Virus record (IMG/VR): IMGVR_UViG_2541047915_000013
Direction: 5' to 3' (one strand)
DNA from: a virus
Taxonomy: Duplodnaviria; Heunggongvirae; Uroviricota; Caudoviricetes
DNA length: 35,881 nt
This document shows positions 698 to 35,881 of the stretch, in pieces. The position numbers and the translations under genes are program-made. Under the pieces are notes generated by a model, which ran no database searches, was not told the DNA's origin, and worked only from the letters and a program-made list of their open reading frames with translations. Numbering within the stretch: the first letter of the stretch is position 1; each line of letters starts with the position of its first letter.

Positions 698-1060
698 GGG
701 GCTGATTCTGGATTCGACGGGATTTGCGAAACCCAAGGTGCATGCCGAGGGGCGGTTGGCCTCGTAAAAAGCCGCAAAAAATAGTCGCAAACGACGAAAA
801 CTACGCTTTAGCAGCTTAATAACCTGCTTAGAGCCCTCTCTCCCTAGCCTCCGCTCTTAGGACGGGGATCAAGAGAGGTCAAACCCAAAAGAGATCGCGT
901 GGAAGCCCTGCCTGGGGTTGAAGCGTTAAAACTTAATCAGGCTAGTTTGTTAGTGGCGTGTCCGTCCGCAGCTGGCAAGCGAATGTAAAGACTGACTAAG
1001 CATGTAGTACCGAGGATGTAGGAATTTCGGACGCGGGTTCAACTCCCGCCAGCTCCACCA
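698..1060 (+). ncRNA. ssrA: tmRNA (transfer-messenger RNA), 363 nt
   Basis: Starts GGGGCTGATTCTGGATTCGACGGG and ends CGCCAGCTCCACCA; internal tag template GCAAACGACGAAAACTACGCTTTAGCAGCTTAA (787-819) encodes ANDENYALAA-stop. Confidence 0.95.
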
Positions 1061-1103: not shown

Positions 1104-1118
1104 GGTAGTGGCGGCAAA

Positions 1119-1157
1119 ATGGCGACAGACTTTTGCGTCCATCTTGCCTGTCGCCAT
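1119..1157. promoter_or_regulatory. 10-bp inverted repeat upstream of the WYL-BRCT ORF (candidate operator)
   Basis: ATGGCGACAG (1119-1128) and CTGTCGCCAT (1148-1157), 19-bp spacer; AAGAGG ribosome-binding site at 1171-1176. Confidence 0.35.
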
Positions 1158-31293: not shown

Positions 31294-31926
31294 ATGATAC
31301 AGGTAAAGGTTGGAGAGAATACAGGGGGAAGAGAGGCTATCCATAGACTAATGGCAGCCTATGATTTCAAGTCCAGACAGCAACTTTGCGATCACTTAGG
31401 CGCATCAAAAAGTACCATGGCAAACAGATACTTAAGAGATAGTTTTCCTGCAGAGTGGGTGATTCAGTGCGCCTTGGAAACAGGAGTTTCTTTACTGTGG
31501 CTAACCACCGGACAGGGGGAGCCAGGTCCAAACATTGAACCTAAAAAAAATATCAATTCCGTGAACTCCAGCAAGGTTGTACCTCTTTCTGAACTAGTAT
31601 CTCCTGAAATTGACAAGGCGACTCTCAACGGTGGTTTATTGGTCGATGCTGGAAAAGCAATCATTGATAGCAGCATACTCCCCTCAGACTCAAGCAACCT
31701 ACTGCTGGTGACTACTTCTGGTGATTCTTATTTAATAGATCGCAACCAAACACCACCAGTAAATGGTATGTGGTTAGTCGATATTGACGGGATAAAAAGC
31801 ATTGTTAAATTGACTCGACTTCCGGGAAACAAATTAGTAGTGCATCAGGATGATTCATCGTTTGAGTGTGGCCTAGATGACATTGAGGTAGTAGGCCGCG
31901 CACTGAAAATCATTAAGAGCCTTTGA
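31294..31926 (+). CDS. cI: CI-like immunity repressor
   Basis: 210-aa protein with N-terminal helix-turn-helix-like region; co-oriented with int. Confidence 0.7.
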   Translation: MIQVKVGENTGGREAIHRLMAAYDFKSRQQLCDHLGASKSTMANRYLRDSFPAEWVIQCALETGVSLLWLTTGQGEPGPNIEPKKNINSVNSSKVVPLSELVSPEIDKATLNGGLLVDAGKAIIDSSILPSDSSNLLLVTTSGDSYLIDRNQTPPVNGMWLVDIDGIKSIVKLTRLPGNKLVVHQDDSSFECGLDDIEVVGRALKIIKSL

Positions 31927-31927
31927 T

Positions 31928-32944
31928 ATGACCATCAGAAAACAGCCGAACGGAAAATGGTTGTGTGAGTGCTATCCCAATGGACGCAATGGTAAGCGCG
32001 TGCGTAAGCAATTTGCTACGAAAGGCGAAGCCATTGCTTTTGAAAGCTTCACAATGGAAGAAGTGAATAAAAAACCGTGGTTGGGTGAAAAGGATGATCG
32101 GCGACGCCTATCAGAATTAATTGAGCTTTGGTATTCCCTGTATGGTCAGACACTCGCAGACCCCAAGCGCCTCATGGCGAAACTTAGAATTATCTGTAAT
32201 GGTCTAGGCGACCCCATCGCCTCAGAACTGACAGCCGGTGACTTTACGAAATACCGCGAAGCACGGTTAAAAGGTGACGTTCGTAACGAAGACGGCACAC
32301 TAATGTCGCCAGTAAAACCACGCACGGTGAATCTTGAGCAACGTAACCTATCATCGGTTTTCGGCACATTGAAAAAACTAGGCCACTGGTCAGCACCAAA
32401 TCCTCTCGCCGGGCTGCCAACATTTAAAATCGCTGAGGGGGAACTGGCGTTCCTGACCTCGGAAGAAATTAAACGTCTGCTAGATGCCTGCGCTGATTCT
32501 CAAAACCCCAGTCTGCTTTTGATTGCAAAAATATGCCTGGCCACCGGCGCACGCTGGAGTGAAGCTGAAAACCTGCAGGGCCATCAGTTATCTAAATACC
32601 GCATCACTTATACCAAGACGAAGGGTAAGAAAAACCGCACCGTGCCGATATCTCAAGATCTGTATGACGAACTCCCCAAGAACAGAGGGAAGCTATTCAC
32701 CCCGTGCAGAAAAGCCTTTGAACGAGCAGTAAAGCGAGCTGGCATCGAGCTGCCAGAGGGCCAATGCACTCACGTGCTACGTCATACATTCGCCAGCCAT
32801 TTTATGATGAATGGCGGAAACATACTGGTGCTGCGCGATATTCTGGGCCATGCCGATATAAAAATGACGATGATTTACGCCCACTTTTCGCCCGATCACC
32901 TTGAAGATGCGGTAACTAAAAACCCTTTATGCAACTTAAGATAG
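31928..32944 (+). CDS. int: Tyrosine integrase (P2/186 family)
   Basis: 338 aa; ...ATGARWSEA..., ...HVLRHTFASHFMMNGG... and ...MIYAHF motifs typical of P2-type integrases. Confidence 0.9.
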   Translation: MTIRKQPNGKWLCECYPNGRNGKRVRKQFATKGEAIAFESFTMEEVNKKPWLGEKDDRRRLSELIELWYSLYGQTLADPKRLMAKLRIICNGLGDPIASELTAGDFTKYREARLKGDVRNEDGTLMSPVKPRTVNLEQRNLSSVFGTLKKLGHWSAPNPLAGLPTFKIAEGELAFLTSEEIKRLLDACADSQNPSLLLIAKICLATGARWSEAENLQGHQLSKYRITYTKTKGKKNRTVPISQDLYDELPKNRGKLFTPCRKAFERAVKRAGIELPEGQCTHVLRHTFASHFMMNGGNILVLRDILGHADIKMTMIYAHFSPDHLEDAVTKNPLCNLR

Positions 32945-33260
32945 AGTAACTTATGAAAACAAACTCAAACTATTTACAAATATAATATTCAGCAGGTTAT
33001 CCATTCTCATTTAACTCTTCAGACTGAGTTTAGGTTTTATTTATAGAATAAGATAATTTTTACATCACAAAAAAACCTATAAGCCCTCATCTTTGTTGTA
33101 TAAAAACATCAAAGATGCCACATTCAAAAATAGTAGAAAAGCATAGCATTGCAACATTAAAAAGAAACCAATAAAAAACAGTCATTAGAAAATGAAAAAA
33201 ACAAAAACATTTTTTATCGAAGCTTCAGTCTGACTACTAGTTTGACTCTGCAATTAACTT

Positions 33261-33290
33261 TCAAGATGATCAATATTTATTGATCATCTT
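33261..33290. repeat. Perfect 13-bp inverted repeat (hairpin) carrying two GATC sites
   Basis: CAAGATGATCAAT-attt-ATTGATCATCTTG, 35 bp beyond the deaminase stop. Confidence 0.7.
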
Positions 33291-33324
33291 GAAGCTTACC
33301 TCAGGAAGGATGAGTATAATATTT

Positions 33325-35058
33325 CTACTCAAGGAGATATTCTAACTCATCTTTTATCGGGATAATTTGCTCATAAAGTCGGTGATATGACTTCCCAATT
33401 GCGCCTCTAAATTGTATTAACTTTGGTGGCTTACTACCTATATTAATAATATGGTCTTGAGCTATACCTGGGTAGGGATCAATAAATACAATTTCAGATA
33501 TACCTAACTGATAAGCTTTTTTCGCACACAACTCACAGGGACTGGCAGTTGTATACAACTTCCCCCCCAGAACGCCAATACCACCATATTTTGCAAGTTG
33601 CAAAAATGCGTTTTCCTCAGCATGTAATGCACGTGTATGAACTTGATTACCTTTTTTCTCTTTATCAAGATCATTATGTATATCTTTAAAACAATAAGAT
33701 AAGTTCCTGCCTCTATAAATATCACCAGTTTTATCTATCGCCCTAAAATTTAAGAGTTTCTCATTAGCTTTAATTCTGAAAGAACTATTATTTCTCTCAT
33801 AATGACTGTACGTTTTTTCATCAAAATCGTTCATTAGGCCATCTAGAGATCTCATAGAGCAAGGAATCTGACCGTTGGCAACATCATTCCAACCAACTGA
33901 TTTTATTGAATTATCACCATCAGTTACTACAGCTCCCACCTGTCTAGATATACAGCCAGAGTTTAATTTTACCGTATACGCAACTTGCATAACCCTTTCC
34001 ATTGCAGTAGGTGTTATCAGACCAGGATGCTTCATCAGTGCGATGTACCACGCTAATTGTGCTTTTAAAATATTGTCATTATCAAATTCATTTTTTGGGT
34101 TAAAAATGTGTATATCTGATAGTTCAATACATTTAGTTACATTTGGATTGGTGAGATGTTTGTAAGAGTTATCACCTTTACCTGACTCTACAGAATCTAT
34201 TTCCTCTATCTGCTTTTCTGAAAACTTATGTAGTTTCCGCAAATAGTTTGTTCGATGTTCATCCGGGGCATTTATTGACATTAAATGAAATGCAGAATAT
34301 CTATCCTTAAAAAATTTTGCCTCATATGGATTTCTAATAGCATCTATGACAATTAATGCGTTATCTCTTTTGCTTTTTCTTATTAATTTAATAACCCTAT
34401 TAATAGTTTCCGGCAAATGAAAAACAGATTTAGGCATAAACTCTTTATCTTCAAAATCGACTTCAATACGCCCACGACGTCTAATTGACTTACCTGCTAA
34501 CTGATAGGCTGAAACATATAAATTTGAGTTTATCTCATTTAGTTCAGCTTTGAATTCTTTAGTAAATTTTCTAACTAACTTCAAAATTGATATAAATTTA
34601 TTAATCGTTTTTTCATCAAGCTTCAATTCACTATTATGATCAAGCAAATTCTCAATTACATTTTTAAATCTTGTCAAAATGAGATTATCTGAGAATACAC
34701 CAAAAGTTAATACAATATCTAAATGCTCTTTACTGATAGATTTATTAGATGATAGAATGAATTCAGAAGCTTCCTCAGCTGTTAACATCAGAAGATACGC
34801 TGAGATTAGGTCACTCACCTTAATTGAGTAAAAATTTTCCCAGTGATTTTCTGCGAATTTTTTAACTATATTATAACGATGGACATCCAATCCCTTGTAA
34901 AACCCCTGTAATTTACTTACATCAGGGAAGACTGTTTTTTCGTTTTCAAGAATATTAGCTGTTGTTGTGCAACCAGAACCAGTTCGACCTGTCAAACCGA
35001 CTAAAATAAACTGCCCATTTTCAAGGAAAAGCTCACTAACGAATTTTTTTTCTTTCAT
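33325..35058 (-). CDS. P-loop kinase-like / cytidine deaminase fusion protein (AvcD/dCTP-deaminase-like accessory gene)
   Basis: N-terminal P-loop GRTGSGCTT; C-terminal deaminase zinc motifs HAEENA and SPCELC; ATG at 35058; about 30% GC. Confidence 0.7.
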   Translation of the reverse strand: MKEKKFVSELFLENGQFILVGLTGRTGSGCTTTANILENEKTVFPDVSKLQGFYKGLDVHRYNIVKKFAENHWENFYSIKVSDLISAYLLMLTAEEASEFILSSNKSISKEHLDIVLTFGVFSDNLILTRFKNVIENLLDHNSELKLDEKTINKFISILKLVRKFTKEFKAELNEINSNLYVSAYQLAGKSIRRRGRIEVDFEDKEFMPKSVFHLPETINRVIKLIRKSKRDNALIVIDAIRNPYEAKFFKDRYSAFHLMSINAPDEHRTNYLRKLHKFSEKQIEEIDSVESGKGDNSYKHLTNPNVTKCIELSDIHIFNPKNEFDNDNILKAQLAWYIALMKHPGLITPTAMERVMQVAYTVKLNSGCISRQVGAVVTDGDNSIKSVGWNDVANGQIPCSMRSLDGLMNDFDEKTYSHYERNNSSFRIKANEKLLNFRAIDKTGDIYRGRNLSYCFKDIHNDLDKEKKGNQVHTRALHAEENAFLQLAKYGGIGVLGGKLYTTASPCELCAKKAYQLGISEIVFIDPYPGIAQDHIINIGSKPPKLIQFRGAIGKSYHRLYEQIIPIKDELEYLLE

Positions 35059-35253
35059 CACGTCCCACTTATGAATGCAAGAACAATTAACATATTAATT
35101 GTAATTTATTAACTAATTTTATTCTAGATACTTGATGTAATGGCGGCACTTTGGCGGCAGAGCATTAAAAACGCGTAAGACGAGCAAATACAAAATAACA
35201 CTAACACATTGTTTTCAAACATAATCTACTGTTTTTACTATAATAAAAATGGT

Positions 35254-35299
35254 ATGTAGGAATTTCGGACGCGGGTTCAACTCCCGCCAGCTCCACCAA
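35254..35299. repeat. attR core: second copy of the 46-bp ssrA 3'-end repeat
   Basis: Exact copy of 1016-1061; not a second tmRNA gene, only the terminal 46 bp. Confidence 0.85.
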
Positions 35300-35428
35300 T
35301 CATGATTGGACGGTGTAAGGACAACACCAACAAAAACAGGAAGTTAGAAGTCTCAGCAGGACACCGACCAGACGGTGAGGAGACATAAAAGGATACGCAA
35401 AGGAGCCGCGGCTCCGAAGTGAAATGAA

Positions 35429-35452
35429 AGCCCGCTGATGCGGGCTTTTTTG
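35429..35452 (+). terminator. Rho-independent terminator in host flank after attR
   Basis: AGCCCGC-tgat-GCGGGCT followed by TTTTTT. Confidence 0.55.
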
Positions 35453-35881
35453 CTTCTTCTCTTTAGCCTGATTCGACACTCTCAATGCGGCCATAAACAA
35501 CAACCCACTTTTCTTATACCGTAGCCTGTCCCCCTCTTCCTGCTTTCTAACCATAACAGATGTGAGCGTTTGCTATGAGCGATATATAGTCATTCGTACC
35601 CTCCGATACTAATCATCACAGAAATTAATATATTCATTCCTTACTGAAAAGCTATGAAGTAGATATATAGGATTGGGGCGCGTATGGCACTGGACAGTTA
35701 TGCATCTCCGAATATTATTCCGGAGCTAAGACAACCGAATGCCGCAGCAGGTAAGATCACGCTAGGGGGGCTGGACAGAATGGCTGTTACGCCCAGTGTG
35801 AAGAAAAGAAGGCTAAGTATGGTAGAATTTCCATACGCACAGACCTTGTTATCCGACTATACAGCCTGGAAGGCACTATGA

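Follow-up and report, generated by a model that had tools for sequence, protein, structure and literature searches.

In the AvcID (DcdV-DifV) system of phage defence, the toxin AvcD is accompanied by a small RNA, AvcI (DifV), of 152-174 nt. This RNA lies immediately 5′ of avcD, has the same orientation, is transcribed together with it and is far more abundant than the avcD mRNA (bioRxiv 10.1101/2021.03.31.437871; PMC10511110). AvcIs have been validated from four species and have no sequence similarity to one another (bioRxiv 10.1101/2021.03.31.437871). In the case of the anti-phage dCTP deaminase of E. coli AW1.7, the enzyme is functional as a single gene cloned with its own promoter region (Tal et al., bioRxiv 10.1101/2021.04.26.441389).

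In phage 186, attP has sites for Apl and IHF in addition to the Int arm sites (PMC7498355). The arm-site consensus of 186-type integrases is tgccGCCActt, and an N-terminal W..E.Y pattern discriminates the integrases that bind such arms (PMC3448106). Here we compare with these systems a stretch of 195 bp that separates an AvcD-family gene from the attachment site of a prophage. We conclude that this stretch is very likely a composite of two ordinary elements, a 186-type attP arm and a moron promoter with a short 5′ UTR. The leader feature is already explained by known elements.

The prophage and its deaminase gene

The window (the whole stretch of DNA analysed, 35,881 nt) holds a complete P2-family prophage of the Fels-2/186 type located in ssrA, the gene into which Fels-2 and SopEPhi also integrate (PMC3448106). 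Its right end is ordered as cI, int, a 380-bp non-coding spacer, the 577-aa deaminase gene on the minus strand, the leader and the attR core. The main landmarks are as follows.

698-1060, plus strand: tmRNA gene (ssrA)
31294-31926, plus strand: cI
31928-32944, plus strand: 186-type tyrosine integrase (Pfam Int_N, E = 1.8e-29, and Phage_integrase)
33325-35058, minus strand: anti-phage dCTP/dCMP deaminase (AvcD/DcdV family), 577 aa
35254-35299: attR core, an exact 46-bp copy of the ssrA 3′ end at 1016-1061 (attL core)

Rfam reports a partial tmRNA match at 35229-35298. On the other side of the prophage, the phage side of attL brings a replacement terminator hairpin for ssrA at about 1068-1096. 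In the host flank past attR we noted a weak Rfam match resembling PrrB/RsmZ (35312-35454, plus strand; 20 bits, E = 0.066), which ends at the native ssrA terminator (35426-35449) and probably arose by chance.

The deaminase is matched by PADLOC dCTPase (E = 1.2e-145), by the NCBIfam equivalog NF041025 (425.4 bits, with a cut-off of 400) and by Pfam dCMP_cyt_deam_1. The match is full length and above the curated cut-off, which is how NF041025 and PADLOC dCTPase define an anti-phage dCTP deaminase. As expected of an AvcD toxin, a P-loop kinase-like domain is fused to a dCMP/dCTP deaminase domain, and Walker A and zinc-binding motifs are present in the translation. Among 5426 complete E. coli genomes, 20 carry the locus, which is annotated by PGAP (RefSeq) as anti-phage dCTP deaminase and in E. 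coli FDAARGOS_1337 and VG888-46E9 is 99.9% identical to the window. We also observed another AvcD-like kinase-deaminase in a prophage of E. coli SF-468 (L175, 1993-3771), a 592-aa protein described as “hypothetical” that is 38% identical to the window protein. Its gene neighbours tail-fibre genes and is preceded by 944 nt of non-coding DNA. The AvcID locus of ETEC H10407 gave no blastn match with either the window deaminase or the SF-468 gene, the homologue being too distant.

The leader exactly fills the interval between the deaminase ATG (35058-35056, minus strand) and the attR core, so that it covers 195 bp (35059-35253). The preliminary description had characterised it as AT-rich, without a plausible ORF and with a GGCGGCA direct repeat, and all three statements proved accurate. 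Its GC content is 30.3% vs 50% in the whole window. The single ORF is a 32-aa frame on the minus strand (35124-35222), which we rejected as spurious as the frame is broken in close relatives (L101 and L089) and in Fels-2. GGCGGCA occurs twice, at 35142-35148 and 35153-35159, with a spacer of 4 nt and a period of 11 bp. In 5000 dinucleotide shuffles of the leader, a 7-mer repeat of any composition is common (32%), whereas a repeated 7-mer with at least five G/C within 15 nt is rare (0.12%). Thus, what is non-random about the repeat is its GC-richness.

The attP arm and its cargo slot

The GC-rich repeat lies in a segment that is shared with phages that have no deaminase gene. The elements of this segment, and their counterparts at the other end of the prophage, are listed here.

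35141-35253, minus strand: int-proximal arm of a Fels-2/186-type attP, assigned by homology to deaminase-less phages
35152-35159, minus strand: Int arm-type binding site 1, TGCCGCCA, predicted by consensus match; its columns are invariant in alignments A1 and A3
35141-35148, minus strand: Int arm-type binding site 2, TGCCGCCA, 11 bp from site 1 and predicted on the same basis
35202-35214, minus strand: putative IHF-like site AAACAATGTGTTA, with one mismatch to WATCAANNNNTTR
1109-1156: int-distal attP arm sites at attL, comprising TGCCGCCA at 1109-1116 (minus strand), TGTCGCCA at 1120-1127 (minus strand) and an inverted TGTCGCCA at 1149-1156 (plus strand)

A megablast search of phage genomes with the window matched 35133-35299, at 82-88% identity, to the attP regions of Cartapus, RE2010, SEN8, SopEPhi, Fels-2 and others, all of which lack the deaminase. 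In Fels-2 the arm segment directly follows the int stop codon, and the record annotates the end of the segment as attP. In the alignments of phages and four deaminase-bearing prophages (A1 and A3), homology runs from the core to just beyond both repeats and ends at about 35139. Fels-2, RE2010, Cartapus, LF82 and the four deaminase alleles show no variation in the repeat columns (two copies of TG.CGCCA on the minus strand). Most arms in A1 and A3 also retain the pattern A(A/T)CA(A/T)N4TTA at the putative IHF-like site.

Read on the minus strand, the GGCGGCA direct repeat of the plus strand is two copies of TGCCGCCA, which fits the 186-type arm-site consensus. Pairs of TGYCGCCA are present on both arms (35141/35152 and 1109/1120, minus strand), each with a period of 11 bp, and the intact attP of Cartapus has the same int-distal pair on the corresponding side. 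The integrase of the window has the N-terminus KWLCECY, which bears the W-x2-E-x-Y pattern (W..E.Y), and it is the protein expected to bind the repeats.

In combination, the segment adjoins the att core, has at least two direct repeats per side, is conserved independently of the cargo and is accompanied by a cognate 186-type integrase. By homology and motif, we assign 35141-35253 to the int-proximal arm of attP, and the GGCGGCA pair to integrase arm-type sites. Binding of Int to the repeats at 35141-35159 is predicted from the homology, such binding having been demonstrated for 186/P2 relatives. In the arm, a bendable AT-rich spacer that includes the putative IHF-like site leads up to the two direct TGCCGCCA repeats, which are offset by one helical turn. 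The integrase would bind these repeats through its N-terminal domain and so assemble the intasome for integration and excision. As the arm is equally conserved where the deaminase is missing, its sequence appears to be constrained by recombination and not by a cognate toxin. The idea that the repeat is an element specific to the deaminase is therefore not sustained: it belongs to an attP arm common to Fels-2-like phages without the gene, and it fits the Int arm-site consensus.

The junction between int and attP of ssrA-integrating Fels-2/186-like prophages is a cargo slot (32945-35140 in the window; loci L001-L007 and L089-L125). Fels-2 has nothing in this slot, Cartapus, RE2010 and the LF82 prophage have a RES-domain gene there, and elsewhere it is occupied by four distinct deaminase alleles. 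These alleles are 70-77% identical to that of the window, start 82-121 nt after the second arm repeat and have unrelated leaders.

The cassette-specific leader and the search for an antitoxin RNA

Between the arm and the deaminase start codon lies a segment that travels with the deaminase cassette, in which we distinguish the following elements.

35059-35140, minus strand: cassette-specific leader of the deaminase, 82 nt, 23% GC, with the promoter region and a short 5′ UTR
35121-35126, minus strand: weak -35-like hexamer TAGAAT, 17 nt upstream of the -10
35098-35103, minus strand: candidate -10 hexamer, TACAAT in the window and TATAAT in all relatives of the allele type, proposed from its conservation
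35063-35068, minus strand: Shine-Dalgarno-like GTGGGA, which can pair with TCTTGC at 35077-35082 in a weak 6-bp stem

This leader is common to near-identical loci (L096-L105) and to Citrobacter/Siccibacter relatives (L089-L093; protein 89% identical), in which it is roughly 75-80% identical to that of the window with an indel of 11 nt. No conservation of the cassette-specific part was found beyond these close relatives. In detail, a comparison with the sequences around homologous loci, 78 of them genomic and about 30 viral, returned similarity to the same allele type only, and there was none to phages with other cargo. The conserved blocks within the leader are TCTAGAAT, TAAATTA(T/C)AATTA and the final 28 nt preceding the ATG.

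The -35-like hexamer reads TAGAAC in L101-L105, a change that would disable a -10 but is tolerable in a -35, and TAGAAT was placed as the -35 for this reason. A consensus scan with a minimum of four matches out of six per hexamer reported no qualifying promoter, either in the window leader or in those of relatives; we attribute the failure of the scan to call the candidate to its weak -35. Given that the scan calls no site, the start of transcription was placed from one conserved hexamer. We infer that the leader holds a weak sigma-70 promoter, TAGAAT-17-TACAAT, from which transcription would start near 35092 to give a 5′ UTR of about 34 nt. The GTGGGA and TCTTGC elements are conserved in allele types A and A′ and are paired in the alifold consensus, with one G-U/A-U change. 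The segment 35059-35140 would then be the 5′ end of a moron-like deaminase cassette inserted in the hotspot between int and the arm, and the cassette would supply its own weak sigma-70 promoter, a 5′ UTR of about 34 nt and a weak Shine-Dalgarno sequence that may be partly sequestered. A promoter in the leader, as the preliminary description had proposed, is accordingly probable in view of the TATAAT/TACAAT hexamer kept among relatives.

The close spacing of arm and promoter raises the question of whether the repeats double as an operator. Int, with IHF, would occupy 35141-35159, roughly -45 to -65 of the deaminase promoter, and cargo expression would respond to integrase occupancy or to prophage state, an arrangement compatible with the explanation by an attP arm and a promoter. 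The -35-like hexamer lies 14 nt downstream of the end of the second repeat, all four deaminase alleles begin directly after the repeat, and RDFs and Int-site complexes regulate adjacent promoters in P4 and KplE1 (PMC7498355). However, this argument is purely positional, the distance from the repeat to the promoter elements varies among alleles, and the insertion point is explained more simply by the need to keep int and the arm intact. We consider such a dual role improbable and retain the reading of the repeats as recombination sites.

We also evaluated the leader for an RNA of the AvcI type. The 5′ leader had been singled out as a place to look for a small RNA, and this was well chosen, given that the published AvcI/DifV sits 5′ of avcD in the same orientation. 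The cassette-specific part measures 82 nt, with about 34 nt past the likely -10, compared with the 152-174 nt of AvcI. No RNA of that length fits between the predicted promoter and the start codon, so an AvcI-like RNA in the leader is unsupported, and the sequence offers no candidate for the co-oriented, co-transcribed 5′ RNA of about 150-175 nt that defines AvcID.

Searches for other traces of such an RNA gave the following results. Rfam, at the gathering threshold and with E up to 10, returned nothing in the leader or the 3′ spacer beyond the tmRNA fragment and chance-level matches, and Rfam may hold no AvcI model. No terminator-like site was recognised by a consensus scan of the leader in the window or in relatives. 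Of 200 shuffles, 195 fold better than the sense leader RNA (z = +1.69), and the antisense strand shows average folding (z = -0.29). Nothing unusual emerged for allele types A, A′, B and C either, whose leaders have z from -0.5 to +0.4. For five type-A leaders, alifold produced a weak consensus of -10.7 kcal/mol with a negligible covariation term (-0.72). When the regions around 78 genomic homologues (400 nt on the upstream side, 450 nt on the downstream side) were compared all against all by blastn, no conserved element shared with the window was detected except the att arm and the 3′ end of int. In these 78 homologues, the nearest upstream ORF of ≥100 aa was found at a distance of -4 to >500 nt. 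The primers of the V. parahaemolyticus avcI probe had zero matches among the fetched loci. As the validated AvcIs are themselves mutually dissimilar, absence of similarity is weak evidence. Taken together with the length of the leader, these results suggest that an AvcI-type RNA is absent from it. Of the reading that had been proposed for the leader, the promoter therefore stands as likely, whereas the small RNA and a regulatory role for the repeat are unsupported.

Two observations on other leaders may be recorded here. The leader of allele D (L094, 2880-3020) has a z of -3.1 and an unrelated sequence, and could hold an allele-specific structured 5′ element. In the clade of the AW1.7 enzyme (L005, 2150-2494, and L011-L015), a TTGttGAt-17-GATAAT promoter about 65 nt before the ATG is kept even in the divergent L015; a further 160 nt upstream are conserved among closer relatives only, and a long AvcI-like RNA is thus not obvious there.

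An inhibitory RNA could be accommodated if it were a long 5′ leader that starts in the attP arm or core and runs from 35253 to 35059 into the deaminase, with the arm sequence doubling as a recombination site and as part of the RNA. Its location and orientation would be those of the published AvcI, 195 nt would be a sufficient length, and the deaminase belongs to the same enzyme family. Moreover, T7 escapers of the AW1.7 enzyme, which is 72% identical, had mutated gp5.7, an inhibitor of the host RNA polymerase, which is consistent with a labile RNA as the controlling element (Tal et al. preprint). Against this, the arm is conserved equally in phages without a deaminase, and the four alleles 70-77% identical to that of the window share the arm yet have unrelated proximal leaders. 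The arm also has no promoter-like site on the minus strand, no terminator or processing hairpin precedes the ATG, and the poor fold of the sense strand and the empty Rfam search count against the proposal as well. There is, in our judgement, little chance that such an RNA exists, and we favour a leader composed of an attP arm and a short cassette-specific promoter region.

The 3′ spacer between int and the deaminase gene (32945-33324; 380 bp, 27% GC, non-coding) had been put forward as an alternative site for a small RNA. Two features were identified in it.

32955-33131, plus strand: decayed N-terminal remnant of a second cargo gene (tblastn, 42% identity over residues 2-61, E = 5e-8)
33256-33296: strong palindromic hairpin with a near-perfect 18-bp stem (minimum free energy -29.3 kcal/mol, z = -5.15)

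The parent of the remnant is a gene for a predicted membrane protein of 208 aa, which is intact between int and the deaminase gene in the Citrobacter/Siccibacter relatives L090, L091 and L093; at the nucleotide level the remnant matches L093/L089 at 70-74%. Neither this 208-aa neighbour gene nor the RES-type cargo was assigned to a PADLOC or Pfam family. The hairpin begins about 29 nt past the deaminase stop, with an outer stem from 33304, about 21 nt past the stop. A canonical intrinsic terminator was ruled out for this hairpin by the absence of a U-tract on either strand, and it is probably a 3′ stabiliser or a terminator for convergent transcripts.

An antitoxin RNA encoded in this spacer would draw on its length, its AT-richness and lack of coding sequence, on the very stable hairpin inside it and on the fact that it accompanies the allele in all 20 E. 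coli carriers. However, characterised AvcI RNAs are 5′ of the gene and not 3′, and part of the spacer (32955-33131) is the decayed gene remnant. Alleles B, C and D have no spacer at the same site, their deaminase stop being 6-14 nt from the int stop. Between two E. coli haplotypes the spacer diverges faster than the gene (identity of about 93.5% vs about 97.5%), and it has no similarity to the flanks of other homologues. We give almost no credence to an RNA in this spacer, and the 3′ alternative falls with the pseudogene remnant and the alleles that do without the spacer.

Comparison with AvcID, 186-type attP arms and moron hotspots

The slot between int and attP is a recurrent site for anti-phage deaminases, and its four short-leader alleles offer a simple test of whether AvcI-type control is universal in the family. 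It is conceivable that the AvcD-family deaminases of the hotspot (four alleles, 82-121 nt from arm site to ATG) function with no canonical AvcI RNA (≥150 nt), and that restraint comes via a very short 5′-UTR element, the kinase-like domain or Int/IHF occupancy, although we regard this as unlikely. If occupancy by Int and IHF were the means of restraint, expression of a defence gene would be tied to the state of the prophage recombination machinery. The locus also calls for some caution in annotation. A GC-rich direct repeat in an AT-rich stretch beside a defence gene seems regulatory, and here it is assigned to a recombination site; att-arm sequence should be subtracted first when AvcI-type RNAs are annotated.

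Compared with AvcID, the window deaminase has the same architecture, with a P-loop kinase-like domain at the N-terminus (GLTGRTGSGCTT) and a dCMP/dCTP deaminase domain at the C-terminus (HAEENA...PCELC). As for the AvcID loci of V. cholerae VSP-1, V. parahaemolyticus, P. mirabilis and ETEC H10407, the gene is located on a mobile element and has an AT-rich non-coding 5′ stretch on the same strand. Unlike in AvcID, which is a type III toxin-antitoxin system of phage defence, the leader is 82 nt with a predicted UTR of about 34 nt, leaving no space for a co-transcribed RNA of 152-174 nt, and neither a small annotated ORF nor a hypothetical gene lies on the 5′ side of the deaminase gene.

The anti-phage dCTP deaminase of E. 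coli AW1.7 is 72% identical in amino acids to the window protein over its full length, and both exceed the NF041025 cut-off. The AW1.7 gene is located in a different integrative element beside tRNA-Phe, with an upstream intergenic region of 524 bp, and its leader is unrelated to that of the window. In the most divergent member of the AW1.7 clade, only the promoter and a 5′ UTR of about 45-60 nt are conserved.

The arm sites resemble those in the attP of 186, Fels-2, SopEPhi and PhiECO1-3 in their consensus motif, in the spacing of approximately one helical turn and in the N-terminal signature of the 186-type Int. The window differs from Fels-2 in that 2.2 kb of cargo (the deaminase gene and the gene remnant) parts int from the arm, whereas the Fels-2 arm abuts int. 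Otherwise there is no substantive difference from 186-type attP arm sites, with binding in the window being a prediction from sequence. Like the defence (moron) hotspots of P2-like prophages, the slot holds an AT-rich single-gene cassette with its own promoter between conserved phage modules, and its occupants are interchangeable. Unlike other P2-like moron hotspots, it is located at the int-attP junction, in the 186/Fels-2 branch.
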